Notes: generated by a model not told the origin, from the letters alone. DNA of 64,000 nucleotides from an uncultured bacterium (GCA_964590255.1 CAZPYA010000003.1:14094-78093), one strand, 5' to 3'. Positions 9,208 through 57,657 are shown, counted from the stretch's first letter. A program made the numbers and translations.

Positions 9208-12200
9208 TTATTTCGCGAATTCCGCGGGCATCATCAGTGGCCCGGCCGGCAGTTTGCGCGCTCGCGCGGATTCGTCAATCTCGTGGAAGCGGAGCAGGTT
9301 GCCACCGGCGATGACGCGCTGGGTGATGGCGCCTCTGGCATCCAGGGTGACGAGGGCGAGTTGGGCGTCGCTGTCCAACGGGCCGGCCTGGGCGCGGGCG
9401 CCGGTGGCGTTGAGCATCACCCAGGTGGTCGCGCGGTCCATTTCGCTGATCACTTTGAGCACGGTCAGGTGGTCGTCGTCGCGCACCACCTCGATGCGCG
9501 GCGGCTCTTTGCCGTCCGGCGGGGCGAGCAGCGCGGAGGGTTTCAGCGTCGGCGCGTGGGGCAGTAAAACTGAGGTGAAGGTCACTTCCTGCCCCTGGCG
9601 CGCCATGCCCGACCACGTCTGCCGCAGTTGGATGGGTGAGCCGCGGAAGGGATTTTCCGCATAGCGGTCGGTGACGGTGTGCGCGCGGCCGGCGCGAGGC
9701 GAGAAGTAGACCAGCAGGTCCCAGGCCGGGTTGCGAATGGCCTGCCCCTCGCGGCCCAGGCCCATGGCGGTGTAGTAGAGCCGGTCGTAGTAGCTGTTGA
9801 ACCAGTTGGCGCCGCACTCCGGCCCGAGAATGCGGGTGTTGTAGCATGGGCCCAGCCGCACCTTCATGGTGGCGTCGAAGCGCGCTCGGTCTTTCACCAC
9901 CAGGAAGCCGTTTTTCACGAAGAGCAGGTCGCGGGTGTAGGTGACCGGCAGGTGCTGGTAACCGGGGGTGCTCACGCGCGCGAAGGTGAAAGCTGGATCA
10001 TCCACGTAGAGCGGCACGGTGGTCGCCAGCGGACTGAGGCTGGCGGGCACGCCGTCCAGGTCCTCGATCCAGAGGATATTCTGCAGGTCCGGCGTGTTGT
10101 CAAAATAGCCCTGCCCCGCCAGCAGCGCGGCGTCCTGCTGCATGAGCGCGTGGATATTTCCCGGCAGTTCGCCGCCGTGGCCGGCCAACGGCAGCAGTTC
10201 CACCAGCGCCCACAGGCTCTGCGCGTCGTTGCCGCTGCTCATGATTACTTTATCCGGTATCCAGCGCGAGCCGTCCATGGAATCGATCCAGAAGCCGCCG
10301 TGCGCCTTTTGCTCGGGCGTGGTCGGCACGTTCGGGTGCCGCCAGGTGACGCGGCTGCCCGCCGGCGGCGCTTTGGGCGTCACCGTGTCGTCGGCCAGTA
10401 GGTAGGCCACGGCGAAGTTATTGCGCGCCGCGTTATAGGAGATATGGTACTGCAGGAAGCGCGCATCCAGGTGATTCGTGTAATACTCCGCGATGCGGTG
10501 GCTGCTCCAGCGGAAGCGGCCGTCGCGCGTCACCCGCGAGAGCAGCTCATACGCCCACATGCCCATGCCCACCTCGTGCCAGCCGTTGCCGGAGGCGAAG
10601 GGCGGGCAGGCGCCGCCCGGCGCCACCATCTCCACGTAACGGGCCAGCGTCTTCGTGAATCCCCGGTTCTTGCGGAACGCCTCCCAATCGCCGCTGTGGA
10701 AATAATAGGCGATGGCGGCGTCGAAGAAGACCCAGTGATAGTTGGCGGAGGCGTCGTCCGCATCGCCCACTTCGCCGATGAGCGGGTCGTGGTAGTTGAT
10801 GTAAGCGATCACGCGCGGATCGACGGGCTTGCCGTCCTGCTCCGCCACGTCGCGGGCGATCTTCAGGCCGATGTAGCGCTGCCAGACGCGGTTATGCGTG
10901 CCAGACTCGCCGAAGAAATCCGCTGGCGGGTTGGCCGCCAGCCGGTGCATAAATGCCCGGTAGCGCTTCTCTGCGTCTTTCGGCGCCAGCGGGCTGGCGG
11001 GATCGTCCTTCCAGGTGAGGTAGCGATACAGGGTCAGGCCGGTCAGCCGCGTCCACAGCAGGGCGTTTTCGCCATTGCCTTGCGGGTAGACGTCCAGATA
11101 CATATCCATCACGTCACGCGCCAGTTGCGCGTATGCGGCGTCGCCGGTGGCGCGGTGCAGCGCCAGGCACTGCAGCGCGGTCCAGCAGGCCCAGCCGTTT
11201 TTCGTGCGGATGGCCGTGTTCGCGTCGGCTTTCAGCGTCGGCTCGATGTGCCGGCGGATGAAAGGGAGATAATCGTCTTTGCCACGCACGAAGCCGTGGC
11301 GATAGAAGCCGTCGCGATGGTCCTGCACCGCGTTGTGCAGCAGGCGGTCGGGCTCCATGTGGTTGATCTGGCCTGGCAGCGCGGGCACCACCGTCGCCGC
11401 GGTGGTCGGCGCCACCACCCGCAGCGGCATCCGGGTTACCACCCGGTTACCAGCGAGCGCCTCGATGACGTAGACGCCGGGAGTTTTCACGGCATCGGCC
11501 GCAATATCCCACATCTCGATGGCGGTCATGCCTTTGGGTATCGCCACCGCCAGCGTCTTCTTCGCCACCACGCCACCCCGCGCGTTGCGCACGCGCAGGC
11601 CGGTCAGCGTGGCCGGCGCCCTGCACGCCTCTATGTCGGCGCGCACCGACCAGGCCATCCCCACAGGCAGCGCGTCATGCGACACCGTCAGCGTGCCGAG
11701 GAGATCGTCCCGATCCGTCAGCCGGAAGAGCGCCTGCTGCTTAGGATCGTTGGAGAAGCCCCATCCGAGCTGATTCAGCCCGCGGCCGGGATCGATGTCC
11801 GCGGCCAGCAAGCCCAGGCGCAGCGGTTCGCCCGCCCGAGCCTGGAAGCCCAGGTCGCTCCACGGGATAGCCACTTCGATATCATAACCCTCCGGGGTGT
11901 CCCGCACCTGCCAGCGCGTGTGCGCCGTCAGCTTCCAGTAGCCGTCGCGCGCGTCGAGGATATTGCGGTCATTCGGCAGCAGCGCGCCACGGGCGCCGGG
12001 AGCCATCGGCGCATAGCGCAGGCCGATGAACGGCGCCGTATGATACGGGGAATTCGGTGTCATCGGCTCGCGAAAGGAGGCGAGGTGCAGCATGAGACTG
12101 TCGCAGAACCACGGCGCCGGCCCCTGATTGCCCGCGCTGTCCGGCCGGGCGCCGAGCAAGTGGTCGTCTACCATCCGGGCGGCGATATAGAGGTGCGTTT

Positions 12201-12465
12201 CATCCCAGGCCAGCGCCACGCGGCCGCTCAGATCGGCGTCGTCGCGTATCGGCGCCATGCCGGACATCGGCGTCACCAGCGGATCCTTGCTGAAGGCGCT
12301 GAGGACAATGGGCGTCCGTGCCAGGTCCCACTCGCCCAGCGCGCCGTCGATGATGATCGGCGAGGCCGGTTTCATCAGCAGATACTCCGGCGGGGTGGGC
12401 GCCAGGGTCGCCGCCAGCCCGGCGGTCATCGCACACAGCAGAAGCCCAAGCATTGTCGCGCGCAT
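9208..12465 (-). CDS. Large secreted carbohydrate-active protein: CBM9-like sugar-binding domain plus heparinase II/III- or oligo-alginate-lyase-like helical and beta-sandwich region
   Basis: GGAGGA RBS, ATG 12465, signal peptide MRATMLGLLLCAMTAGLA. CBM9-like IDGALGEW, LAWDETHLYIAARMVDD and GYDIEVAIPW. Later THNRVW, ANYHW and GHGG motifs followed by a beta-rich tail. The lyase call is tentative. Confidence 0.6.
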   Translation of the reverse strand: MRATMLGLLLCAMTAGLAATLAPTPPEYLLMKPASPIIIDGALGEWDLARTPIVLSAFSKDPLVTPMSGMAPIRDDADLSGRVALAWDETHLYIAARMVDDHLLGARPDSAGNQGPAPWFCDSLMLHLASFREPMTPNSPYHTAPFIGLRYAPMAPGARGALLPNDRNILDARDGYWKLTAHTRWQVRDTPEGYDIEVAIPWSDLGFQARAGEPLRLGLLAADIDPGRGLNQLGWGFSNDPKQQALFRLTDRDDLLGTLTVSHDALPVGMAWSVRADIEACRAPATLTGLRVRNARGGVVAKKTLAVAIPKGMTAIEMWDIAADAVKTPGVYVIEALAGNRVVTRMPLRVVAPTTAATVVPALPGQINHMEPDRLLHNAVQDHRDGFYRHGFVRGKDDYLPFIRRHIEPTLKADANTAIRTKNGWACWTALQCLALHRATGDAAYAQLARDVMDMYLDVYPQGNGENALLWTRLTGLTLYRYLTWKDDPASPLAPKDAEKRYRAFMHRLAANPPADFFGESGTHNRVWQRYIGLKIARDVAEQDGKPVDPRVIAYINYHDPLIGEVGDADDASANYHWVFFDAAIAYYFHSGDWEAFRKNRGFTKTLARYVEMVAPGGACPPFASGNGWHEVGMGMWAYELLSRVTRDGRFRWSSHRIAEYYTNHLDARFLQYHISYNAARNNFAVAYLLADDTVTPKAPPAGSRVTWRHPNVPTTPEQKAHGGFWIDSMDGSRWIPDKVIMSSGNDAQSLWALVELLPLAGHGGELPGNIHALMQQDAALLAGQGYFDNTPDLQNILWIEDLDGVPASLSPLATTVPLYVDDPAFTFARVSTPGYQHLPVTYTRDLLFVKNGFLVVKDRARFDATMKVRLGPCYNTRILGPECGANWFNSYYDRLYYTAMGLGREGQAIRNPAWDLLVYFSPRAGRAHTVTDRYAENPFRGSPIQLRQTWSGMARQGQEVTFTSVLLPHAPTLKPSALLAPPDGKEPPRIEVVRDDDHLTVLKVISEMDRATTWVMLNATGARAQAGPLDSDAQLALVTLDARGAITQRVIAGGNLLRFHEIDESARARKLPAGPLMMPAEFAK

Positions 12466-14096: not shown

Positions 14097-14170
14097 CGGA
14101 ATCTCCTTATCAGGGTCAGCTCATCATACCCCGGAACGGCAAAAGGGTATTGCAGAATGTTATTTTGAGG

Positions 14171-14252
14171 AAATGGGAACAGTAACGCATTTTTCGATGC
14201 TGCTCGTAGTCACCGGGTATCGAAAAGCAAAAATTCGTTGCTGTACCCATTT
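14171..14252. repeat. REPIN-like doublet, AAATGG..AAC family 1
   Basis: AAATGGGAACAGTAACGCATTTT ... AAATTCGTTGCTGTACCCATTT; homologous copies at 47997, 55401, 57433 and 57565. Confidence 0.85.
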
Positions 14253-14265
14253 CCCCCGACCAACC

Positions 14266-14495: not shown

Positions 14496-14837
14496 TAGGC
14501 CCTTAGAGGTGCGCTCACTTCGCTCCGCCTCGGGGAGGGAAAGAGGCGCAGCGTGATCCAGCTATTATTTTCCATATCATGTGCCGATTTACCAGGTGAC
14601 TTCCGTATTTCCTGGTGAGAATTCCTGGCGACGAAGGGGGTGCCGACTAGCGAAACAGTGGTCGACAACACTGCAGTCGGGAGCGCATGCACCCGCACAC
14701 CGGAGCGATAATGCGACGATACGCGCCGCGGGGGGCGCGGACAACCGATTGACGAAACCCCTCACCACTTCATGACTTGACGGAACCCGGCCACATCTTC
14801 ACAATACACACAGGACGTCTTACCGGCGAGGATCACC

Positions 14838-17468
14838 ATGTTGAACTGGCTGCTGCGCATCGTCGTATTGTCGCTGCTCTGGCTGCGCTACCGCATCACC
14901 ATCCGCGGGCTGCGCGAGATCACGGCGCGCGGGAACACGGGCATCCTCTTTCTGCCCACGCATCCGGCGCTCATCGACCCGATCATGCTCACTGCCACGC
15001 TGATGCGGGATTTCCAGGCGCGGCCCTTCGCTGACCAGGACGCGGTGAATCTGCCGGGGGTGCGCTGGCTGGCCAGCCGGGTGCGGGCGCTAACCATCCC
15101 CACCATCGCCAACTACGGCCAGGCGGCGATGGCGCGCATCGCGGCGACGGTGCAGGAGAGCATCACCGCGCTCAACGCCGGCGACAGCATCATCCTCTAT
15201 CCCGCCGGGGCGCTGCTGCGCAGCCGCTATGAGGCGGTGGGCGGCAACAGCGCGGTGGAGACCATCCTGCGCGCGCTGCCCGACGTGCGCGTGGTGCTGG
15301 TGCGTACCCGCGGCCTGTGGGGCAGCAGTTTCGGCCAGGTGAGCGGCAAGGAGGCCAACGCCGGCGCCGTGCTGCAGCGCGCCATCCCGCAAATCCTCTC
15401 TAACCTGTTATTCTTCACCCCGCGCCGTAACGTCGATATTTACTTCGAGGAACCGGCGGATTTCCCCCGCGAGGCCGACCGCGCGACCATCAACGCTTAC
15501 CTGGAGCGCTTCTACAACGTCGAGGCCCCGCCGGCGCTATACGTGCCCTACACGATGTGGGAGCGCGGCGGCCGGCGCGAGCTGCCCGACCCGGAGTGGG
15601 GCGGCCTGCCCGGCAACGTGGAGGACGTGCCCGCCGGTACCCGCGATATCGTGCTGGCGCGCCTGCGCGAGATGACCGGTCGCGTGACCATTGCCGACAC
15701 CGACCGGCTGGAAACCGACCTGAGCATGGACAGCTTGGCCCGCGCCGAGCTGCTGGCGTGGCTGGAGGCGGAATTCGGCTTCCCGCAAGGCAACGCCGAC
15801 TCGCTGCAGACGGTAGCTGACGTGCTGCTGGCGGCGCTGGGCGAAGGCGTGGCCCGAGCCAATGTGACACTGAAACCCGTGCCCGAGGCGTGGTTCGCCC
15901 CCGACACCGACGCCGTGGTGACTGTGGCGCCGGGCGACACTATCGCCGCCGCCTTCCTCAACATGGCCCGCCGCGAACCCAATCGCGTCATCGCCGCCGA
16001 CCAGAACAGCGGCGCGCGCAGCTACCGCGAGCTGGTGATGGGCGTACTGGCGCTACTGCCGGCGGTAAAGGCGCTGCCGGGCGAGCACCTGGGCATCATG
16101 CTGCCAGCCTCGATGGGGGCGATGCTGGCCTACCTGACCACCGTCTTCGCCGGACGCACGCCGGTGATGATCAACTGGACGGTGGGTCGCCGCAACCTGC
16201 TGCACGCGCTGGAACTCACCGGCACCCGGCGCATCCTCACCGCGAAGGCGCTGGTGGCGAAGCTGGAGAAGGCCGGGCTGGACCTGGAGGGGATCAAGGA
16301 ACGCTTCGTCTATCTGGAAGACCTGGCCGCCGGACTGACGAAGGGACAAAAGCTGCGCGCGCTGCTGGGCAGCTACCTCAACTGGGGGGCACTCACGTCC
16401 GCGCGCATCGCTCCCACCGCGGCCGTCCTTTTCACCAGCGGCTCAGAGAGCCTGCCCAAAGCGGTGCCGCTGTCGCACGCCAACATCCTCGCCAACCTGC
16501 GCGACACGCTGCCAATGATCAAGTTGCGTCGCGCTGACCGCATGCTGGCGATGCTGCCGCCCTTCCACTCCTTCGGCCTCTCCGGCAACCTGGCCGCGCC
16601 GCTGGTGGCGGGGCTGCGCGCCGTCTATCATGCCAATCCCACGGAAGGCGGCGTGCTGGGCAAGCTCACCGCGGCCTATCGTGCCACGCTTATCCTCGGC
16701 ACCCCCACCTTCCTGAACGGCGTATTGCGCGCGGCGCCGGCGGCGCACCTGGCCACGGTGCGGCTGGCGGTGACCGGGGCGGAAGAATGCCCGCGCCGCG
16801 TGTATGAGCTGTTCGGCGCGCACTGTCCCAAGGCGACGATCATTGAGGGATACGGCATTACCGAGTGCTCGCCTATCGTCGCCGTCAACGACCCCGACGC
16901 CCCCCGCCCGCACGCCATCGGCAAGCTGCTGCCCTCGCTGGAATTCGCCGTGCTCGACCCGGCCACCGAGACACCGGTGTCGCCCGGCGCCGCGGGCATG
17001 CTGCTGGTGCGCGGCCCGTCCATCTTCGGTGGCTACCTGGGCGACGCCCCCAGCCCCTTTGTCGACTACGACGGCAAAAGCTGGTATCGCACCGGCGACC
17101 TGGTGCGACTGGGCGACGACGGCGTCTTCACCTTCGCCGGGCGGCTGAAGCGCTTCATCAAACTCGGCGGCGAAATGATCTCGCTGCCCGCCATCGAGTC
17201 CGCGCTCCTCGAACGGCTGGGCTCCGCCGAGGACGACGGCCCCATCCTCGCCGTAGGCGCCACCGCCGACGAACGCCCGGAACTGGTGCTCTTCACCGTG
17301 AAGCCCGTCGACCGCGAGGGCGCCAACGCCATCCTCCGCGACGCCGGCCTCTCCGCCCTGCACAATCTCCGCCGCGTCGAACCCGTGGACGCCATCCCCG
17401 TCCTCGGCACCGGCAAGACCGACTACCGGGCCCTGCAGGGATTGCTGATGAATGAGGCGAAGACGTAA
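14838..17468 (+). CDS. Aas-like multidomain protein: PlsC-type acyltransferase, carrier-protein-like domain and AMP-dependent acyl ligase
   Basis: HPALID (HX4D), LYPAG, SMDSLARAEL (phosphopantetheine-site-like DSL), FTSGSESLPKAV, EGYGITE, WYRTGD, GRLKRFIKLGGEMISL, GKTDY. Confidence 0.85.
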   Translation: MLNWLLRIVVLSLLWLRYRITIRGLREITARGNTGILFLPTHPALIDPIMLTATLMRDFQARPFADQDAVNLPGVRWLASRVRALTIPTIANYGQAAMARIAATVQESITALNAGDSIILYPAGALLRSRYEAVGGNSAVETILRALPDVRVVLVRTRGLWGSSFGQVSGKEANAGAVLQRAIPQILSNLLFFTPRRNVDIYFEEPADFPREADRATINAYLERFYNVEAPPALYVPYTMWERGGRRELPDPEWGGLPGNVEDVPAGTRDIVLARLREMTGRVTIADTDRLETDLSMDSLARAELLAWLEAEFGFPQGNADSLQTVADVLLAALGEGVARANVTLKPVPEAWFAPDTDAVVTVAPGDTIAAAFLNMARREPNRVIAADQNSGARSYRELVMGVLALLPAVKALPGEHLGIMLPASMGAMLAYLTTVFAGRTPVMINWTVGRRNLLHALELTGTRRILTAKALVAKLEKAGLDLEGIKERFVYLEDLAAGLTKGQKLRALLGSYLNWGALTSARIAPTAAVLFTSGSESLPKAVPLSHANILANLRDTLPMIKLRRADRMLAMLPPFHSFGLSGNLAAPLVAGLRAVYHANPTEGGVLGKLTAAYRATLILGTPTFLNGVLRAAPAAHLATVRLAVTGAEECPRRVYELFGAHCPKATIIEGYGITECSPIVAVNDPDAPRPHAIGKLLPSLEFAVLDPATETPVSPGAAGMLLVRGPSIFGGYLGDAPSPFVDYDGKSWYRTGDLVRLGDDGVFTFAGRLKRFIKLGGEMISLPAIESALLERLGSAEDDGPILAVGATADERPELVLFTVKPVDREGANAILRDAGLSALHNLRRVEPVDAIPVLGTGKTDYRALQGLLMNEAKT

Positions 17469-17483
17469 GATACTCAGTAAAGC

Positions 17484-17594
17484 GGTGACTGACTGCGCAT
17501 TACCCTTGGCGATGCTGCCCGGTGCGCAAAACGGCAAGGCAATGCATGAGGCAGACACTTTCGCATCCGCATCAGTAATGCGTTGTCTGTCACC
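17484..17594. repeat. REP doublet, GACWGACTRCGCATT family
   Basis: GGTGACTGACTGCGCATTAC (17484-17503) and GTAATGCGTTGTCTGTCACC (17575-17594), 17/20 inverted match. Related copies at 51512-51730 and 55381. Confidence 0.75.
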
Positions 17595-21656: not shown

Positions 21657-23875
21657 TCACGGCGCGGTGTCCCACAGCACCGTCACCGGGATGGGCCCGG
21701 GCGTCACGTCGAGTTGAATGCTCCACGCGCCGGCCGTGTCGGTTACCGTGGCCGGCAGCAGCGTGGCGTCGCCCGAGCGGTAGGCCTGCACGTTGGCGGG
21801 CTGTGCCGCCAGCGGGCCGATGCGCACTGTGAGCGGGACGTTGTAGATCGCTAAATCCAGCGGCGTGCCCAGGGTGAAAGTGCAGCGGCCCGGTGCGTCC
21901 TCGGCGACGGCGAGTTGCGCCGTATCGCGCTCCAGCACGTAGCGACTGATGACGCCGAAGGTGTCGATCCAGGCGTCGCAGCCTTTCGCATAGGCGAGGT
22001 GGGCGCTCAGCACCTCGCGGCTGATGGGCAGATAGGTGGTGTCCGCCACGCCGTGCAATATAGGCACCAGCCAGCGGCGATTCGCCACCGCGCTATTCAC
22101 CATGGCGTTCGCCTGGGCGGCGGTGAAGTCGGCGCCGCCGTAATTGACGTAGTCGCCCCGCAGCGCCACATGCGTGCGGTGGATGATCTCGTAGACGCGC
22201 GAGTTGCCAGCGGTGTGCGGCAGGGCGAAGCTCACCGGCGTCACGCCCAGCTTCTCGGCGATGAGCCGCGCATTCTCCTCCACCTGCACCGTCGCCTGCG
22301 CCGCGGTCAGCGTGCTCATATTCAGGTGATCCAGGCTATGGTTGCCCACCTCGTGCCCGCGAGCGAGCGCCGTTCGCCACTCCGCCCAACTCACTGAGTC
22401 GTAGTTGCCCGCGGTATCCGGCGTGTAGTGCCCCACGATGTTGAAGGTCGCGCGCAGGCCGTGCTGGTCGAAGATGGGCACGCCGTAGACATACTGGTTC
22501 TTTGTACCGTCGTCAAAGGTGTAGGAGACGGCGGCGGCGCGGTTGCCCTTAAACGGGGCAACCGTCACCTTCGTGGACGGCGTCTCGCCCGGATGGCGGA
22601 TGACTACCGTTTGTGTGTCGTACAGCTCTTTCACGGCGGTCGCGCCGTCGCGCGCCCAGACCAGCAGGCGGTACGCGCCGGCGGCGGTGGGCGTCCAGGT
22701 GCAGGTGGTGGCTGGGCTGAAGTCCTGCAGCACCGTCCATGTCCAGGCGCGGCCGGTCAGCGTGCCGGCGACGAATTGCATCTGTACGGCGCTGCCGCCG
22801 TAGGGCTTCGCGGTGAGTACGATGGGCGAGTGTATCTCGCGCGAGGCTGACGACAGGCTCAACGCCACGTCACCGAGCGGATCCGTGACACCGGTGACGG
22901 TGAAGGCCAGCGAGGCGATGCGCGGCGTGGCGTCGGGCGTAGCCGCATCACGGGCAGCCACCTCGAAGACATAGTTGCCGGCAGCGGATGGCGTCCATCG
23001 ATACGCTGGATCGGCGGCGTAGTCGCGCAGTATCACCCAGGTGGTGCCGGCGGCCGTCACCGTGCCATGCCAGAAACGATAGTGGAGATCAGCGCCGCCG
23101 GTGGGCGTCGCGGTGAGGGTGATGGGGGTGCTTTGTATCTGCGGCGACGGCGGGTCGGCAGCAAGGCGCACCCCGGACAGAGCGGGAGTGCCTGTCACCG
23201 TGTAGGCGATGGCTTTGTTGACCATCACGGCGTCATCGCGCGCGATAACCTCGATGATGTAGCTGCCCGCGCCGGGCGTCCAGCGGAAGACGGGATCGGC
23301 AGCGAAGTCGCGCGCCAGTGTCCAGGTGGTGGTGCCATTGACGGTGACGCCCAGCCAGAAGCTGTATAGCGCCGCCGATCCACCGACAGCCGTCGCGGTG
23401 CAGGTGATGGTGGCGCCCGCCGGATGGGGCCCGGCCGGGGTGGTCGCCAGTGTCACCGCTGCCAGTGCCGGCGTGCCGGTGATGGTATACGCGAGGGATT
23501 TGCTCACCAGTCCGGTGGTTGCGGTGCCTTCGCGCGCGATGACTTCAATAATGCGGTGCCTTCGCGCGCGATGACTTCAATAATATAGTTGCCCGCGCCA
23601 GGCGTCCAGCGGAAGACGGGATCGACGGCGAAAGCGCGGACGACTTTCCAGGTGGTGGCGCCGTTGACGGTGGTGCCCAGCCAGTAGCAATACTGCACCG
23701 CGGTGCCACCGACGGCCGTGGCGGTGAGCGTGACGGTGGCACCGGACGGCTGCGGCGCGGGTGGGGTGACTGCCAATGTCACCCCGGTGAGGGCCGCGCC
23801 CCACGCCAGGTGCGCCAGTAGCAACAGGCTCATCAGCAGCGTTGCCCGGCCACATGTTCCATCATGGAACCGCAT
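21657..23875 (-). pseudogene. Secreted NodB-type polysaccharide deacetylase with four N-terminal Ig-like (Y_Y_Y-like) repeats, frameshifted by a 32-bp tandem duplication
   Basis: Track ORFs 23504-23875 and 21657-23507 join (..IIEVIAREGTATTGLVSKSLAY..) if one 32-bp copy is removed. Signal peptide LLMSLLLLAHLAWGA; deacetylase motifs SYTFDDG, HEVGNHSLDH, SFALPH, ILHGV. Confidence 0.85.
23521..23584. repeat. Perfect 2 x 32-bp tandem duplication
   Basis: GCGGTGCCTTCGCGCGCGATGACTTCAATAAT at 23521-23552 and 23553-23584. Confidence 0.95.
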
Positions 23876-42366: not shown

Positions 42367-43305
42367 ATGGGCAACACATGGGGCGTGAAGCTTCTGATAT
42401 TCAGCAGTCTGCTGCTGCTGGCATCCGGGGCGCTGGCGCAATACGGCACGCAACTGTCTCCGCGGTTTATGCCGGGCAGCGCGGTGGATGGTAGCAACCT
42501 GGTCCCGTATCTGCAGGCGGAGCTGAATGGGATCGCGCTGCTGACGGCACAGAGCAACTACCTGATGCAGCAGGGCGACACCGTGGGGTCGGTGCTGGTA
42601 TCGAGCTACATTCCCGATCACCAGATGCAGGCGTCGATGCTGGCGCAGGAGATTCGCAACCGCGGCGGCGATCCCGATACCGTGCAGGCGAATCTCAGCA
42701 CCCCGTACCTGGGCACACGGGCGCAAATACTCGCCTACGATAGTCAACAATACGTGCAGGCGGCGACCAGTTATCGTCGGCTGACGAAGGCGGGCACGGA
42801 AGACTCGCGGATGCTGGGCATGAGCGGACTGAGCAACGCCGAACGGCATTTCGCGTCGCTGCAGGTCGCCCATGGCGCGACGATCGGCGGGCCGATAGCG
42901 GTGCTGAACGGGCTGAATTACGCCCTGCAGCTCGAGCGGACGGCGATCCTCGACATCCAGACGCAGGCGTCGCAACTGAACCGGATGAATGATCCGGCCA
43001 CCGCCAACCGGCTGCTGAGCCTGATCCCGGCGCACCAGGCGCAGGCGGCAACGCTGGAATCGCTCATTACGCGGATGGGCGGCAACCCGGCGGCGGTGCA
43101 GACCGCCACGGTGGCACTGCTGCCCACCCGGGACGCCATCATGGCGCACTTCCGCTCGGCGGATATCCAGATAGCCAATACCTACGCGACGCAGATCGCC
43201 GGATTCTCCAGCGCCAGCCCGATCTATGTCGCCAGCCTGCAGGGGCAGCGCAACGCGCTGACCGCCATCGCGGTGCTCTTCGGCACAGTCGTGCCGACGG
43301 TGTAG
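42367..43305 (+). CDS. Secreted protein with two tandem ferritin-like four-helix repeats
   Basis: GGAGGAGAGG RBS; signal peptide; internal repeat IPDHQMQASML..RNRGGDP / IPAHQAQAATL..TRMGGNP. Confidence 0.6.
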   Translation: MGNTWGVKLLIFSSLLLLASGALAQYGTQLSPRFMPGSAVDGSNLVPYLQAELNGIALLTAQSNYLMQQGDTVGSVLVSSYIPDHQMQASMLAQEIRNRGGDPDTVQANLSTPYLGTRAQILAYDSQQYVQAATSYRRLTKAGTEDSRMLGMSGLSNAERHFASLQVAHGATIGGPIAVLNGLNYALQLERTAILDIQTQASQLNRMNDPATANRLLSLIPAHQAQAATLESLITRMGGNPAAVQTATVALLPTRDAIMAHFRSADIQIANTYATQIAGFSSASPIYVASLQGQRNALTAIAVLFGTVVPTV

Positions 43306-43310
43306 CAGGA

Positions 43311-43384
43311 CTCCCCATATCTCCCCCTCTCCCAGCATTGGGAGAGGGGGCAGGGGGTGAGGGCGCGCGCGGGAGCGCGCAACG
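43311..43384. repeat. REP element, CCCTCTCCC..GGGAGAGGG family with GCGCGCAACG tail
   Basis: CCCCTCTCCCAGCATTGGGAGAGGGGGCAGGGGGTGAGGGCGCGCGCGGGAGCGCGCAACG; homologous to 53689-53757 and 54757-54816. Confidence 0.8.
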
Positions 43385-43403
43385 AGAAATGGGGACGGAC
43401 GCT

Positions 43404-47602: not shown

Positions 47603-48082
47603 CTCGCACTCGTGCTCGTGCTCGTGCTCGACAATGAAGTATGGTTCGGTGGCGGCGGCTGTAGGCGGAAAAATAGTGACAGGAACCGTTTTCCTGATAG
47701 ATAGTAACCGCTGGGCTATCCTGGACTTGGGAAAACGGTTGCTGGCACTATTTTTCTGGCAGTTGGATGGTCTGGAGGGCGAGACTCCGTCGAGCCGCTG
47801 AGTGCCTAATCGGCACCCCTCCCCGACCCTTCCCCGTCCTCTCCACTGCGTTCCGCGGACAGGGGAAGGGAGTATATATTGGCACTCCCTCCCCTGTGCA
47901 TGAAGGACACGAGGGGAGGGCTTGGCCGATCAGGCAATCCAGTAACGAGTTCTGACGGCTCGACAGCGTCTCGCCCTCCAGGATATCCACCTACCAGAAA
48001 TGGGGACTGTAACGAATTTCTCGATCATAAAACAGGGTGACGATCCCTGTTCAACCAGAAATTCGTTGCTGTACCCATTTCC
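47603..48082. repeat. Composite, partly nested REP array (at least 5 families in about 480 nt)
   Basis: CTCGTG hexamer run 47603-47630; family-2 doublet 47668-47756; GGAGGGCGAGACTC doublet 47772-47796 / 47956-47981 enclosing a TGCCTAATCGGC...GCCGATCAGGCA element (47801-47936); family-1 doublet 47997-48081. Confidence 0.85.
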
Positions 48083-51518: not shown

Positions 51519-51730
51519 CTGCGCAAGACCGCTGCGCAACCTGTCATCACTACACAATGCCGCACATCGCCGTGCGCCATACCTTGTCATGCGTAGTCTG
51601 TCCCTATCATTCCGTTCTCGTTCGAAAGTCGGGTGCAAGGGACAGACTACGCATTGCGAAGCAGACCTGACTCCGCCACGTTTTCACCTATCGTGACTAC
51701 GGCAGCATGCCCGGCAATGCGCAGTCAGTC
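51512..51730. repeat. REP cluster, GACWGACTRCGCATT family (four arms)
   Basis: ATGCGTAGTCTGTCCCT (51589-51605) / AGGGACAGACTACGCAT (51638-51654) perfect 17-bp IR, plus ACTGACTGCGCA near 51514 and GCAATGCGCAGTCAGTC at 51714-51730. Confidence 0.75.
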
Positions 51731-51740
51731 CCGGTGACAG

Positions 51741-53588
51741 CTACCCCTCCCACACCGGCATCGCCACCGCGCCAATTTTCTTCGCCGCCACCCCGCGGCG
51801 TTCCAGCCGCAGGTGGATGCCCCAGGCGGCGCCCTTGTTGATGTCCAGCGCCACCACTACCTCGTGCGTGCCGGCGGCGGCGGTGACCGGGATGATGCCC
51901 TGGTCGGCGTAGGCGGGGTTGATGCCGTTCGGGTCGGTGTAGCGGGCGACGCCGTCCACCCACGCGCGCACCGGGCCGTCATAGCCCAGGCACACGTTCA
52001 GCTTCATCGGCTCGGGGCAGGTGAAGCGGCAGGCGTAGTAGACCACGCCGCTCGTGACGCCGCCGGCGAGGATGTCCGGGTGCAAATCGCTGAAGTCCTG
52101 CGCGAAGGTCTTCGGCCGCAGCGCCAGGCCGGCCAGGTCGGGGAAGGCCAGTTTGGTCACCGCGCTACCGGCCGGCTGCACGCCGCTGACGCGGTACTGG
52201 CACGCGAAGGGCGTCAGCGCCCGCGCGTCGCCGATGGTCACCGGGCCGAGCACCGGCAGCGCGCGGTCGGCGGCGTCGGTGATGTTGCAGAACGGCGCCA
52301 GCCCCAGCCCGTAGTGCAGCGATTTGCCGAGCAACTCATTCTGGTTCATGCCGGTGTGCAGGATGGCGGTGCTGCCGTCCAGGTCGACGCGGAAGATCGT
52401 ATCGATGAACCCCGCGTCGCCGGCGATGGCGAAGCCGTTGGGCCGCCCGTCCGCCCGCAGCGCGCCGATGACGTTGGCAAATTCCACCACCACGTCGGTG
52501 CTGCCGCGCAGCGGGTTCACTTTCACGCGGATGGACTTCAGCGCGATGGGCGGCGGGTCGCTGCTGACGCCGGTCAGTGTCGCCATCGCCCCTGCCAGCC
52601 GCCTGCCCAGCCGCTGCTGGTCTTCGCCGCTGATGTGGATGCCGTCGTCCAGCCCCAGGTCGATGGCCGGCACGGTGAGTACCCGCGGCAGCCGCTCGGG
52701 CAGCTTGCGCTGCTGCTCCTGGATGCTGTTCCACGACGCGATGTTGTTGGGGTCCCAGCCGTGCACGCTGGCGATCTGCACCAGCACGAAGGGCAGCTTC
52801 CCGTCTTTACAGTCGCGCCGAAAGGCTTTCACCAGCGCGACCATCGCCTCGGTATACACCGCCGCCGCGCCCGGCCAGGCGTCGCTGCACCCCTGGTACC
52901 AGGCGATGCCCGCCACCCGCCCGCCGTTTTTGTGCACGCGGCGCAGCGTGGCGCTATACAGCGTGCTGCCGCTGGGCGTCGTCAACGTCGGGTCCCACTG
53001 CGCCATGCTGGTGCCGCCGTGGGCGCAAGCCAGCACGCCCTGCGGCACGCCCGTCAACCGGTGCATTTCCTGCGCAAAGGCCACGCCCGGGCCCACCCCG
53101 CGTACCGCGTCGCGCGTCGGCCGTACCCCACCGCACAGGTCGATGTGTACCGAGTCCACACAGTCGCACATATTGTGGATGGGGTCCTGCGCCACGGCCC
53201 AGCGGTCGTCCGTGTAGAAGGCGCGCACCAGTGGCCGCGGTGTCGCCGCCTGCGCCCGCGCGCCGCAGCCCTGCATGTTCGACTGCCCACCGCATATCCA
53301 CACGTCGCCCACCAGCACGTCGTCGACGACGGCCGTCTCTCGCCCGATACTCAGCTCTACCGTATACGGCCCGCCCACCGGCACGCCCGCCAGCCGCGCG
53401 GTGAATGTGCCCTTCCGTGCCTGCCCGATGTTCACGCTGTCAAAGCCCGGAAGCACGCCGTCGCTGCCGCGCACCGTCGCCGTCACCGGCCCCGTCGTCG
53501 CCCGGCACGTCCCGCTGATCGGCGCATCGGATGCCTCCCCCGCGCGCTGCAGCACCATATGCGCAAACAACCCCTGCTGGATATGCAT
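51741..53588 (-). CDS. Sialate O-acetylesterase (SGNH/SASA) family protein with C-terminal beta domain
   Basis: AGGAG RBS; LFAHMVLQR, GGPY, GDVWICGGQSNM, AHGGT, WYQGCSD, FVLVQIA, DGIH. Confidence 0.88.
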   Translation of the reverse strand: MHIQQGLFAHMVLQRAGEASDAPISGTCRATTGPVTATVRGSDGVLPGFDSVNIGQARKGTFTARLAGVPVGGPYTVELSIGRETAVVDDVLVGDVWICGGQSNMQGCGARAQAATPRPLVRAFYTDDRWAVAQDPIHNMCDCVDSVHIDLCGGVRPTRDAVRGVGPGVAFAQEMHRLTGVPQGVLACAHGGTSMAQWDPTLTTPSGSTLYSATLRRVHKNGGRVAGIAWYQGCSDAWPGAAAVYTEAMVALVKAFRRDCKDGKLPFVLVQIASVHGWDPNNIASWNSIQEQQRKLPERLPRVLTVPAIDLGLDDGIHISGEDQQRLGRRLAGAMATLTGVSSDPPPIALKSIRVKVNPLRGSTDVVVEFANVIGALRADGRPNGFAIAGDAGFIDTIFRVDLDGSTAILHTGMNQNELLGKSLHYGLGLAPFCNITDAADRALPVLGPVTIGDARALTPFACQYRVSGVQPAGSAVTKLAFPDLAGLALRPKTFAQDFSDLHPDILAGGVTSGVVYYACRFTCPEPMKLNVCLGYDGPVRAWVDGVARYTDPNGINPAYADQGIIPVTAAAGTHEVVVALDINKGAAWGIHLRLERRGVAAKKIGAVAMPVWEG

Positions 53589-53688
53589 GATGACACTCCT
53601 TCTGAAGACCTGCAGGTGTATTTCGTGAGCCGCCGGCGCTCTCCTGCCGATCCTCTGATGATTCACAGATAGTTATTCGCGTCCCACG

Positions 53689-53757
53689 CCCCATACCTCC
53701 CCCTTTCCATGTAGGGAAGGGGGGCGGGGGGAGAGGTGCGCGCGGGAGCGCGCAACG
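53689..53757. repeat. REP element, CCCT..AGGG family with GCGCGCAACG tail
   Basis: Homologous to 43311-43384. Confidence 0.75.
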
Positions 53758-53854
53758 TTTCCACGCGCCTTTGTACCAATCCCCCAACGAATACCCATCC
53801 CTGTGTCGCCGAACCAACAGGAGGGCCCATGGCCCCCCGGCGAACCCAACTCCC

Positions 53855-55390
53855 ATGGTGCAGACCTTTTCCACTGGTATCGTCACCCTGTATGTGGACC
53901 CGCGCGGCAACGATGCCTGGTCCGGCCGCCTGCTCGCGCCGAACCGGGTGGGCTTCGATGGCCCCGTCGCCACGCTGGCGCGCGCGCTGCAGTTGGCCTG
54001 GGGCCGGCCGACGCGGGTGCTGCTGCGTGGCGGCCGGTACACCCGGCGTACGCACATCGCCGAGGGCGCGCTCATCGCCGCCTATCCCGGCGAGTGCCCG
54101 GCCTTGGCCGGCGAGACGACCCTCGCCGCGCGGGGCATCCAGATGGAGGGCGTGGCGCTGGGCGCCGTGCGGCTGGACGGCACGGGGCACGGCATCCTGT
54201 GCAACTGCCGCATCGCCGGCCCGGTGACGGTGGCGGGCGGGCACGGCAACCGCCTGCTGGCCTGCGTTATCGACGGCGACGTGCATCTGGGCGGGGAAAC
54301 GCTGCTGTCCGACTGCATTATCCGCGGCCGGGTCACCGTCGCCGCGGATGGTTGCCGGCTGCGGCACAACCGGCTCGAAGATTGCGAGATTATGCCCTGC
54401 GCCGGCACGCTGCTCGAGAATAATCGCCTGGACGCCCTCTGTTTGCGCGGCGCACAACCCGGCGTCCGGGTATGTGGCAACGTCATCGTTGCCGGCATCA
54501 CCGCCGAGGGCTGCGCCGGCGCGCTCATCGAGGATAACGATGTCGGCGGCGGCTACTGCCAGCGGGGCGGGCGCGACAACATGCTGCGTAACAATTGTGT
54601 CGCCGGCGCGGTCGTCGCCGACGCCGCCCCCTGGCTGCGCCCGCTCATCCTCGACGGCAATCTCCTCGCCGCCCCGGCGCACGCCAACCACGCCCTCCTC
54701 CTCCGCAACTTCTACTCATACTCGTCCTCGCCACCTCCCCTCATCCAGAATGTAATCCCCCCCTCTCCTCGGGGAGAGGGGGCAGGGGGTGAGGGGGCAC
54801 GCGAGAGCGCGCAACGATCTTCTACACAGGTCCTCCCCTCCCTTGCGCAGCGAAGCGGAGCGGGGGAGGGGCCGGGGGTGGGGGCCGAAAATAGCCACAA
54901 GGCAGGGGGGGAGGGCCGACGTCCGACTCCGCACGGGCGTGGGATCCTTTCGAACACTCCTCCTCTGCGCGACGACCACCCCGCCCTCGCCTACGGCTTC
55001 GGCCCGCTCGATCTCGCGCTCGCCGGCCCGCGCCTGACCGATATCCTCCCCGAGGTCGACGCCTGGGACACCGAGCCGGAGCCGCCGGCGCCCGCCCTCG
55101 CCTGCCGGCTGGAGCCCGACGGCGCCGACGGCTACCGTCTGACCATCGACAACCGCGGCGCCGTCGCCGCCATGGGCGAGGTGGCGCTGGGCATCACCCC
55201 CGCCGACGCCGGCGAATTGCTCGATGACGACCGCTACGCCTACGTCCTCGCCCCCGGCGAGGCGGTCACCTACCTCGGCTGCCTGCGCCCCCATGCCGAC
55301 CTTCTGCTGGAAACCTTCCCTCGCGGAGAAGGAATATTGCCCACGGCGCTGTATTGTACGAGTGGAGAATGTATAGAAACCGGTGACTGA
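53855..55390 (+). CDS. Right-handed parallel beta-helix protein carrying an 88-codon in-frame REP-derived insertion
   Basis: LYVDPRGNDAWSG...GPVATLARA N-terminal motif; repeated I..N/C.I turns; C-terminal L(R)DDHPALAYGFGPLDLALAGPR interrupted by the insertion. Confidence 0.75.
   Translation: MVQTFSTGIVTLYVDPRGNDAWSGRLLAPNRVGFDGPVATLARALQLAWGRPTRVLLRGGRYTRRTHIAEGALIAAYPGECPALAGETTLAARGIQMEGVALGAVRLDGTGHGILCNCRIAGPVTVAGGHGNRLLACVIDGDVHLGGETLLSDCIIRGRVTVAADGCRLRHNRLEDCEIMPCAGTLLENNRLDALCLRGAQPGVRVCGNVIVAGITAEGCAGALIEDNDVGGGYCQRGGRDNMLRNNCVAGAVVADAAPWLRPLILDGNLLAAPAHANHALLLRNFYSYSSSPPPLIQNVIPPSPRGEGAGGEGARESAQRSSTQVLPSLAQRSGAGEGPGVGAENSHKAGGEGRRPTPHGRGILSNTPPLRDDHPALAYGFGPLDLALAGPRLTDILPEVDAWDTEPEPPAPALACRLEPDGADGYRLTIDNRGAVAAMGEVALGITPADAGELLDDDRYAYVLAPGEAVTYLGCLRPHADLLLETFPRGEGILPTALYCTSGECIETGD
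54707..54970. repeat. 264-nt composite REP element inside a coding sequence
   Basis: Contains TACTCATACTCGTCCTCG, CCCCTCTCCTCGGGGAGAGGGGGCAGGGGGTGAGGGGGCACGCGAGAGCGCGCAACG and CCCTCCCTTGCGCAGCGAAGCGGAGCGGGGGAGGGG. Confidence 0.8.
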
Positions 55391-55400
55391 CTGCGCACCG

Positions 55401-55485
55401 GCAATGGGGACTGTAACGAATTTCGCGATCTTCCGCTCGGAATCGAGATGCTGACAAGCCAGAAATTCGTTGCTGTACCCATTGC
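55401..55485. repeat. REPIN-like doublet, family 1
   Basis: GCAATGGGGACTGTAACGAATTTC ... GAAATTCGTTGCTGTACCCATTGC. Confidence 0.85.
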
Positions 55486-55518
55486 TTGACCGATTTCCCG
55501 TCTAGAAAGGCCAACGCC

Positions 55519-56658
55519 ATGACCACCGATCTCGACCGCTTTATCGCCTGCATGGAATACCAGCCATGCGACCGCCGGCCCAACCACGAACTGGCGGCCT
55601 GGGCACAAACGAAAGTGCGTTGGCGCGAAGAGGCGCCGGAGATCGTGGGTGATTTCCACTGGTACTGGTTCGAGCAGGAAGCGAAGCTGCAACTCGATCG
55701 CCGTGAGTATATCCGCATGGATTACGGCTTCATCCCCCCTTTCGACTACGAGGTGCTGGAGGAAGACGATCGCTATCTCATCGCGCGCAATAACCGCGGC
55801 ATCGTGACGAAGGCGCTGAAAGACGGCACCGTGGACGGCGGACGCATGAGCATGGACGAATATATGCGCTTCCCGGTGGAGTCGCCGGAGGACTGGCCGG
55901 GCGTGAAGGCGCGCCTGGTGGCTGATCTACCGCAGCGTTGGGCGACGATGACGCCGGAGAAGGTGGCGGAGTGGACCGGGCCGCGCGAGCACCCGCTCAT
56001 CCTCGGTCATAACTGCGACGCCAACGGCTTCTACTGGCGCGCCCGCGAGTTCATGGGCACTGAAAACCTGTCCTATGCCTGGTACGACTACCCCGAGATG
56101 ATGCACGACATGATGGAGACCTATTGCGATCTCATCATCGAGGTCAGCAAGCCGGTGCTGGCGCAGGTGGATGTCGAATACTTCACCCTCAACGAAGACC
56201 TGTCCATGAAAAATGGGCCGCTGCTCAGTCCCGACACCTTCAAGGAGTTCATCTTCCCGCACCTCAAGCGGCTGGTGGAATTCATGAAGAGCAACGGCGT
56301 GCGCTACTTCGCGCTGGACACCGACGGCAATCCCACCGTGCTCATCCCCCTCTTCATGGATGCCGGCGTCGACGTGCTCTGGCCGCTGGAGCGCGCCTCC
56401 GACGTGAGTCCGATGGACTATCGCAAGCAGTTCGGCAAATCGCTGCGCATGTGGGGCGGCGTCGATAAGCGCGTGCTGCCGCTCGGCCCGGCCGCCATCA
56501 ACGCCCACCTGCGCGAGATGATCCCGCTCATCGAGGAAGGCGGCTTCATTCCCACCATCGACCACACCGTGCCGCCCGATGTCTCCTGGGACAACTTCCG
56601 CTACTACATGGACGCGAAATGGGCGCTGCTCACCGGGGATTACGACAAACTGGAATAG
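55519..56658 (+). CDS. Uroporphyrinogen decarboxylase / methyltransferase family protein
   Basis: DRFIACMEYQPCDRRP, FPVESPEDW, EDLS, DTDGN, MWGGVDKR, GGFIPTIDH.VPPDV. Confidence 0.85.
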   Translation: MTTDLDRFIACMEYQPCDRRPNHELAAWAQTKVRWREEAPEIVGDFHWYWFEQEAKLQLDRREYIRMDYGFIPPFDYEVLEEDDRYLIARNNRGIVTKALKDGTVDGGRMSMDEYMRFPVESPEDWPGVKARLVADLPQRWATMTPEKVAEWTGPREHPLILGHNCDANGFYWRAREFMGTENLSYAWYDYPEMMHDMMETYCDLIIEVSKPVLAQVDVEYFTLNEDLSMKNGPLLSPDTFKEFIFPHLKRLVEFMKSNGVRYFALDTDGNPTVLIPLFMDAGVDVLWPLERASDVSPMDYRKQFGKSLRMWGGVDKRVLPLGPAAINAHLREMIPLIEEGGFIPTIDHTVPPDVSWDNFRYYMDAKWALLTGDYDKLE

Positions 56659-57423: not shown

Positions 57424-57432
57424 GAAAGTAAA

Positions 57433-57649
57433 AAATGGGGACTGTAACGCATTTCCTGGCATAACGCTGTTTTCGAATCCCAATACAACCTGAAAAAGAT
57501 TAGCGCGCCGCCGCATCTCCACTCCGAGGAAATGCGTTGCTGTACCCATTGTCCGATAGAACAGGAAATGGGTACAGCAACGAATTTCGCGCTCTTCAAT
57601 GCTCGCGCACGCGGTGCATACTCGTGAAATTCGTTACAGTCCCCATTTC
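57433..57649. repeat. Two adjacent family-1 doublets in opposite orientation
   Basis: AATGGGGACTGTAACGCATTT...AAATGCGTTGCTGTACCCATT (57433-57550) and GAAATGGGTACAGCAACGAATTTC...GAAATTCGTTACAGTCCCCATTTC (57565-57649). Confidence 0.85.
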
Positions 57650-57657
57650 CCGCTTTC

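Follow-up and report, generated by a model that had tools for sequence, protein, structure and literature searches.

In an uncultured bacterium of the phylum Armatimonadota, a gene for a right-handed beta-helix protein carries, in frame and between its two structural domains, a block of about 78 codons that contains repetitive extragenic palindromic (REP)-type units. The gene lies in a stretch of 64,000 nucleotides (GCA_964590255.1, CAZPYA010000003.1:14094-78093; hereafter the window, to which coordinates without a contig name refer). The host is free-living and G+C-rich, and its genome (G000) is a 5.09-Mb metagenome-assembled genome (MAG) of 160 contigs with 64% G+C. The block is absent from three orthologs, the repeats from which it is built are overwhelmingly extragenic elsewhere in the genome, and in-frame copies occur in five further genes. 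With a probability of roughly 0.8, two palindromic units of the families here called A and B, a partial third unit and filler sequence entered the inter-domain linker in frame and are read through as a disordered loop. The gene and its parts are:

53855-55390, + strand: host gene, 511 aa (one open reading frame (ORF) of 511 codons; orthologs; AlphaFold2 model)
53855-54709, + strand: native N-terminal part, the beta-helix, residues 1-285, ending ..AHANHALLLRN (ortholog alignment; G+C content at third codon positions, GC3; predicted local distance difference test, pLDDT)
54710-54943, + strand: inserted block, best estimate, 78 codons, right edge +/- ~30 nt (ortholog gap, GC3, pLDDT)
54754-54822, + strand: family A unit, with hairpin CCCCCTCTCC/GGAGAGGGGG, G-rich tail CAGGGGGTGAGGGG, a second GC stem and the foot AACGA (nhmmer)
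54824-54897, + strand: family B unit, with hairpin CCTCCCCTCCC..GGGGGAGGGG, then tail CCGGGGGTGGGGGCCGA (nhmmer)
54900-54920, + strand: putative partial B-type tail without hairpin, AGGCAGGGGGGGAGGGCCGAC (read from the sequence against B-family tails; weak evidence)
54944-55390, + strand: native C-terminal part, with the conserved motif LRDDHPALAYGFGPLDLALAGPRL, then the beta-sandwich (orthologs, GC3, AlphaFold2)

Comparison with orthologs confirms that the insertion in the host gene is real. The closest full-length homolog, a 447-aa protein from an Armatimonadota MAG (P0002), is identical to the gene product of G002, one of the other two species in the host genus; the copy in the remaining congener, G001, is partial. 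Both copies adjoin the same downstream neighbour gene, whose product starts M..TDL(D/E)RFIACMEYQPCDRRPNHELAAWAQTK, and the two genes are therefore syntenic orthologs. A third ortholog, the fragment P0009, was recovered by a HMMER search of 1.8 billion representatives. By BLASTP, residues 1-271 of the window's protein correspond to residues 1-285 of P0002, and residues 371-500 to residues 310-443. Between the segments ILDGNLL and LR(E/D)D.PALA.GFGPLD, the three orthologs have 23-24 residues (RGCRGWDDRALARRNSRLAAVGAA; RGCRAWDDRALARRNSRLLHAEGC; HGRCEWDDRLLAWRNWHDTPHSS), whereas the host gene has 99, a net gain of 75-76 aa. At the left edge, host AAPAHANHALLLRN aligns with ortholog ..DDR(A/L)LA(R/W)RN, and at the right edge host ..SNTPP-LRDD aligns with ..TPHSS-LRDD, alignments that best place the foreign block at 54710-54943. 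An earlier note on this DNA had drawn the insert at 54707-54970, as 264 nt (88 codons), a multiple of three without a stop in the gene frame, reading NFYSYSSSPPPLIQNVIPPSPRGEGAGGEGARESAQRSS...GILSNTPPLR; that segment is indeed open and in frame, and its ends are compatible as alternative limits. The ortholog gap proposed there does lie at this site within one continuous gene, although it measures 75-76 aa and not exactly 88. The same arrangement is found in a Joint Genome Institute (JGI) metagenome contig (3300044990, Ga0485166_0129825, 1700 nt), which is 100% identical to 54151-55850, insert included.

The composition and predicted structure of the protein set the block apart in the same way. 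The reading frame is uninterrupted from 53771/53855 to 55390, with a TGA stop at 55388-55390, and GC3 is ~0.9 (0.8-1.0) along the gene as against 0.60-0.73 in intervals inside 54725-54964. The N-terminal part shares 45-50% identity with its orthologs, with GC3 of 0.8-1.0 and pLDDT mostly above 85, and the C-terminal part is 54% identical to the G002 ortholog, with GC3 of at least 0.9. The product is a right-handed beta-helix followed by a C-terminal beta-sandwich, as judged from AlphaFold2 and the orthologs: the model (21-sequence alignment, mean pLDDT 74.7, predicted template modelling score 0.72) is confident both for the helix (~residues 10-288) and for the sandwich (residues 415-507), and between them residues 291-369 form one long stretch with pLDDT <50. 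The peptides encoded by the insert include GEGAGGEGAR, SSTQVLPSLAQR and SGAGEGPGVGAENSHK. A Pfam scan of the entire protein returned no family or domain, and homologs in large protein libraries are named "right-handed parallel beta-helix repeat-containing" proteins. Foldseek gives weak matches of the helix to PL6 alginate lyases, mannuronan C-5 epimerases and a rhamnogalacturonan lyase (best E ~1e-3), and of the C-terminus to Ig/MG-like domains; because these matches are weak, the protein is describable as a right-handed beta-helix that is carbohydrate-enzyme-like, and no further.

The repeat origin of the block is evident from searches of the host's own genome. Aligned with blastn, the 264 nt give 325 high-scoring segment pairs, all of which fall on insert positions ~50-112 or ~124-192. 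The in-gene A unit scores 55 bits (nhmmer E 2e-14), at the 69th percentile of 249 family hits, and is 93% identical to the intergenic segment 43340-43385 and 76% identical to 53713-53758; the in-gene B unit scores 63.5 bits (E 4e-17), at the 91st percentile of 205 hits. These percentiles indicate that both units are little decayed. Recognisable repeat accounts for ~145-165 of the 264 nt, and so the derivation of the insert from intergenic palindromes, as earlier proposed, holds for the A and B units and not for the whole, insert positions 1-47 and ~215-264 matching nothing else in the genome. The two intergenic relatives in the window are:

43319-43388, + strand: intergenic family A copy, between the TAG stop at 43303-43305 and the next ATG at ~43404 (nhmmer E 2.6e-17)
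53693-53763, + strand: family A copy in the intergenic space directly upstream of the host gene (nhmmer E 4e-9)

The first of these, from 43340, translates to GEGAGGEGARGSAQR, just as had been claimed for the region of 43311.

Both families have the attributes of REP sequences. The family A consensus (~60 nt) reads CCCCTCTCCC-loop-GGGAGAGGGG, followed by nCAGGGGTGAGGG, a GCGCGC..GCGCGC stem and the end AACGA, and that of family B (~60-75 nt) reads CCCCTCCCTTGCGCAGCGCAGCGGAGCGGGGGAGGGG and then CCAGGGGTGGGGGCCGA. In each, the C-run/G-run hairpin has arms of 10-11 nt, in keeping with a REP stem-loop. Profile searches with nhmmer find 249 A and 205 B hits in the host genome, which resolve into 443 non-overlapping units in 342 clusters, a copy number typical of REPs. 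The extragenic habit is equally clear: 81% of the genome is coding-like, yet of 413 units 337 lack any coding-like flank and six have two. About 99% of family copies are extragenic, and ~1-2% of units lie inside genes. Beyond the host genome, family A has copies in both congeners (G001, G002) and, further afield, in two more genera of the same family and one more family of the same class (G006, G007, G013), a spread across genera and families from which its considerable age follows; G003, G004 and G009 lack the families.

The internal order of the block also has precedents outside genes. An A unit followed by a B unit on one strand recurs at ~10 intergenic loci, including C26:3643-3782, and the A-spacer-B segment of the gene is 85% identical over 117 nt to intergenic C26:3663-3777, with the spacer between the units common to both. 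The recurrence of such composites, and the spacer shared with C26, indicate that a pre-existing composite entered the gene rather than two units in separate hits. No donor for the full 264 nt was found in the host genome, where the C26 relative covers the A-spacer-B core only.

The course of events was probably as follows. Once the host species had diverged from the two congeners known, an A unit and a B unit of REP type, in that order and together with a partial third unit and filler, would have entered the beta-helix gene in its linker, which joins the last rung of the beta-helix to the conserved capping motif LRxD.PALA..GF.P.D. The block would now be read through as a ~78-residue disordered loop rich in Gly, Pro, Ser, Arg and Glu. 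The copy probably survives because its length keeps the frame, because G+C-rich palindromes are nearly free of stops and because the linker is permissive. With so few stops in the six frames of the insert (0, 1, 2 / 1, 1, 2), an open gene needs little beyond a length divisible by three. More generally, the simplest reading is a filter by selection: copies landing in genes would be purged unless they are in frame, stop-free and situated in a tolerant loop or linker.

A repeat, CT(C/G)CGC, had been pointed out at the two junctions; it is present in the sequence, but a target-site duplication, which it seemed to imply, is rejected. The orthologs without the insert carry CTC GCG CGC CGC AAC and CTC CGC GAG GAC, so that the junction repeat CTCCTCCTC(C/TG)CGC consists of native L.RRN and LRED codons kept in the insert-free genes. 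The block has no terminal inverted repeats such as would mark it as a miniature inverted-repeat transposable element (MITE).

In-frame units are not confined to the beta-helix gene. A screen for units in an open frame with coding-like flanks, which combined profile hits with a looser hairpin-plus-tail pattern (536 sites), identifies five further genes: GH65-like, Mfd, IleS, PFL-like and methyltransferase. The earlier note had raised the prospect of other coding insertions, and there are at least five more in-frame copies, four of them confirmed as insertions by ortholog alignment; its interpretation of a repeat family that enters ORFs without breaking them is accordingly supported. Three of the genes are located as follows (G003-G005, used below for comparison, belong to other genera of the same family):

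C2:30853-33552 of G000, minus strand: GH65-like gene (kojibiose/maltose phosphorylase family), insert at C2:32370-32483
C65:27039-30752 of G000: Mfd; also L030 (G002), L032 (G001) and L031 (G004)
C154:5275-7164 of G000: IleS fragment; also L024 (G002)

The GH65-like gene provides a clean case: two A-type hairpins, arranged as an inverted doublet, form a 36-aa insert that G001, G002 and G004 lack, the C-terminal flank being 77%, 77% and 60% identical to theirs, respectively. The junctions of this insert show no duplication. In Mfd, one linker contains REP-like Gly/Pro/Ser peptides of 12, ~27 and ~29 residues in G000, G001 and G002, and none in G004, a pattern suggesting that coding REP units have been gained, duplicated or lost more than once at a single site. 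The 7-aa hairpin-encoded segment of IleS (PLPLQERGSD / PLPQGERGGE) is common to G000 and G002 and absent from G003-G005, which marks it as an inherited in-frame repeat insertion of greater age. The PFL-like glycyl-radical enzyme contains HSPLASGRGGQGGEGAW, a net +6 aa relative to G001 and G003, and the methyltransferase contains PPPQPSPRPLRGQGEGG, read from the opposite strand, where the G002 protein is 12 aa shorter. The coding units vary in reading frame and strand, giving PPSPRGEGAGGEG, SPLASGRGGQGGEG and SPSPGGGGVGEG, or PPPQPSPRPLRGQGEG and TPPPGPLPLQERGSD from the opposite strand. No frame-breaking intragenic copy was found in the genome. At nine other same-strand clusters with a coding-like flank at either side, a stop occurs just before or within the cluster and coding resumes in another frame; these look like short spacers between co-directional genes, with no gene split.

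The C-terminus of the beta-helix protein coincides with a repeat of a different kind. The TGA stop at 55388-55390 falls within a copy of a third repeat family, GGTGACTGACTGCGCA, of which a pattern search finds three matches against 0.06 expected:

55382-55397: GGTGACTGACTGCGCA, across the stop codon of the host gene
17484-17499: GGTGACTGACTGCGCA
51718-51733, minus strand: GGTGACTGACTGCGCA

The last ~7 residues of the protein (..GECIETGD) have no counterpart in the orthologs, and GC3 there is 0.47; together, these features indicate that the C-terminus has been remodelled by a second repeat.

Several points weigh against an in-frame insertion that is translated and tolerated. About 85 nt of the block (54710-54753, and ~54921-54943 or beyond) match no repeat family. 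At 45-50% identity, the orthologs do not fix the exact boundaries or the possible replacement of 8-9 native residues, a segment of the SRLAAVGAA type. Closer orthologs or an empty-site allele were sought in a single metagenome scan, which gave one distant relative (45% identity), and in the HMMER search of 1.8 billion representatives, which gave only additional fragments. The JGI contig and the MAG may share a source sample, which makes the contig's independence uncertain. The chance of an open frame is ~1/3 for the length multiplied by ~1/3-1/2 for freedom from stops, which is not improbable, and openness by itself is therefore no proof of selection for function. Finally, we infer translation of the insert, continued function of the protein that carries it and the status of in-frame copies as a remainder left by selection, rather than a special property of the element.

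It could be that the insertion is real but the gene is crippled, its frame open by chance in a pseudogene too young to have decayed. The insert, at 75-88 aa, is long and without a coding signature, its stop-free state comes cheaply when any frame holds few stops, the gene family is rare and probably dispensable (3-4 orthologs in very large libraries), and a different repeat has changed the C-terminal tail as well. Against this, both flanking domains keep a strong coding signature and their conserved motifs. The site is, moreover, an inter-domain linker, and similar repeats are tolerated in IleS and Mfd; the lack of any frame-breaking intragenic copy in the genome argues that broken genes are purged quickly. 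A crippled gene thus seems improbable.

An assembly artefact, in which a repeat cluster was threaded by the assembler into an uninterrupted gene, might be suspected of a 160-contig MAG in which A and B units occur hundreds of times, often at contig ends. Such an error would hardly join two halves of one gene, in order and in frame, by way of a block in which ~85 nt are unique and the A and B units are variants of its own. With an identical 1700-nt contig in the JGI assembly and a clean parallel in the GH65-like gene, this explanation is very unlikely.

A search of 53500-55600 against Rfam (E up to 1) gave chance-level matches alone (best E 0.03-0.4, far below gathering scores), so the insert is not a known RNA, and no intrinsic terminator was found within it. 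That the block is removed after transcription or translation as an intron, an intein or by translational bypass, leaving a mature protein without it, is scarcely credible: the insert RNA has a strong predicted fold (-135.8 kcal/mol, z = -3.2 relative to shuffles), as expected of palindromes, and hairpin-rich inserts are processable in principle, but no intron or other family is matched in Rfam, the low-complexity Gly/Pro/Ser/Arg peptide is without intein splicing blocks, and similar units lie in other genes in varying frames and on either strand, which is a misfit for a dedicated processing signal.

Insertion of a REP composite followed by readthrough as a loop has implications beyond the beta-helix gene. 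It is a concrete example of how selfish intergenic palindromes can extend a protein by a long stretch and leave it unbroken. The insert is unusually large, at 75-88 residues, and the event is datable, the insert being absent from two congeners and its units still lying in the upper part of the family score range. Based on the Mfd linker (three species), the cluster in the beta-helix linker and the IleS insert inherited by two species, one might speculate that REP units in the host genus act as a standing source of new disordered linkers, and that certain linkers serve as landing pads for their gain, multiplication and loss, although we regard this broader picture as rather doubtful. Were the Gly/Pro-rich loops or the mRNA hairpins put to use, for instance as spacers or as translation pauses at domain boundaries, this would amount to the domestication of REPs as coding material. 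The beta-helix protein, the GH65-like protein, Mfd and IleS also supply natural insertion variants for testing loop tolerance. For annotation, there is a warning: where a peptide like GEGAGGEG, PSPRGEG or SGRGGQGGEG turns up in a protein that is otherwise conserved, it is repeat-derived.

The enzyme that might mobilise families A and B was sought among the nine Y1-transposase (Y1_Tnp) homologs of the host genome, none of which (0/9) is flanked on both sides by A or B units, as a cognate REP-associated tyrosine transposase (RAYT) gene would be. An IS200-like Y1 gene has one A unit 65 nt away, on one side only, and a RAYT-like gene on C96 has a weak B-type hit (E 3.6e-4) 110 nt upstream, likewise on one side only. 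By the NCBIfam model for REP-associated tyrosine transposases, a gene on C49 passes (90.7 bits) and that on C96 falls just below the cut-off (70 bits). Both genes reside in classic REPtrons:

C49:~14650-15500 of G000: RAYT-type gene
C96:~11500-12300 of G000: RAYT-type gene

Each is flanked on both sides by hairpins that are not of the A or B type, GGAGCGCGGATT..AATCCGC and GATAACGGGGGACAG..CTGTCCCCCGTTATC; these flanking types (GGAGCGCGGATTTTCAATCCGC / GCGGATTACAAATCCGCGCTCC, and the GATAACGGGGGACAGCCTCCGGTGTCCCCCGTTATC type) are unlike A and B. A RAYT link for families A and B is accordingly rejected, the RAYT-type genes of C49 and C96 sitting among other REP types.

Further repeats occur in the window. 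Another family, AATGGGGACTGTAACGAATTTC, with its inverse GAAATTCGTTGCTGTACCCATTTCC, forms doublets in several gaps between genes, including the gap directly after the beta-helix gene:

14166-14254, intergenic: AATGGGGACTGTAACGAATTTC/GAAATTCGTTGCTGTACCCATTTCC repeats (D3, D5, I10, I11, as also in the next three lines)
47993-48082, intergenic
55397-55486, intergenic
57428-57650, intergenic

Within 23228-23796 there is a 243-nt direct repeat in two copies of 77% identity, 326 nt apart, and 23520-23583 is a perfect 32-nt tandem duplication (families D1 and D15).

Intragenic REPs have been described before. Several species were shown by Di Nocera, De Gregorio and Rocco (2013, BMC Genomics 14:522) to have REPs "entirely located within ORFs", over half of these intragenic copies being dimers or groups; in Thauera and R. 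conorii there are clusters that encode 43-82 aa. The genes hit are frequently those for DNA repair and tRNA synthetases, and a stop codon can be contributed by a REP end (PMC3733652). The contention of the earlier note that REPs are normally extragenic is thus borne out by the overwhelming habit of the present families, and the special status that it gave to a coding copy was overstated, intragenic REP clusters being published (PMC3733652) and in-frame MITE fusions being on record as well (PMC10969869). Like these GTAG/CGTC-tagged REPs, families A and B are short palindromes that are mostly intergenic, with a minority wholly inside ORFs; their targets include a DNA-repair gene and a tRNA synthetase, here Mfd and IleS, and a repeat supplies a stop codon, here at 55388. 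They differ in their phylum, Armatimonadota, and in their sequences, the present units being longer (55-70 nt) and made up of a C-run/G-run hairpin and a G-rich tail, to which A adds a second GC stem. Nor was a clear tag seen in them: the family A consensus ends ..GCGCGCGGGAGCGCGCAACGA, which on the reverse strand reads TCGTT-GCGCGC..., so that CGTT, one mismatch from CGTC, lies beside the GC stem, and no GTAG/CGTC tag was seen in family B. At 75-88 aa, the insert is at or above the top of the size range reported for clusters of the tagged REPs.

A second point of comparison is the Rickettsia palindromic element (RPE). A 2024 review of MITEs describes in-frame fusions by intragenic MITEs as "not unusual", with RPEs as the extreme case (PMC10969869). 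By that review's account, RPEs sit in frame in mutually unrelated genes, some of them housekeeping genes, where they add peptide segments at sites apparently suited to the fold (Ogata et al. 2000 Science 290:347; 2002 Genome Res 12:808), nearly half of the copies from three of ten families lie inside ORFs, and each family encodes one conserved peptide (PMC10969869). The RPE analogy drawn in the earlier note is apt as a way of working, given that in-frame peptide segments occur at apparently fold-compatible sites in the beta-helix gene and five further genes. Unlike RPEs, families A and B have ~1-2% of their units inside genes, where they are read in various frames and from both strands; there is no sequence relationship, and the present host is free-living and G+C-rich. 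The case thereby extends a Rickettsia-type phenomenon to a free-living, G+C-rich and barely studied phylum.

REPINs, in turn, are extragenic doublets replicated by RAYTs (Bertels and Rainey 2011, PMC3116915). Families A and B resemble this system as high-copy extragenic palindromes in doublets and higher-order clusters, and the inverted doublet in the GH65-like gene is itself REPIN-like. They differ in that A and B flank no Y1 transposase gene and in that the beta-helix insert is a direct A-B composite, not an inverted doublet. The bacterial interspersed mosaic elements (BIMEs) of E. coli, which are extragenic and bind IHF and gyrase, are mosaics of REP types with fixed spacers. The recurrence of A-spacer-B at ~10 loci is a comparable combination of REP types in a recurring mosaic. 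As intragenic REPs and RPEs are already established, the block opens no new question, and it is filed as an intragenic REP cluster, new in its sequence families and in its phylum.

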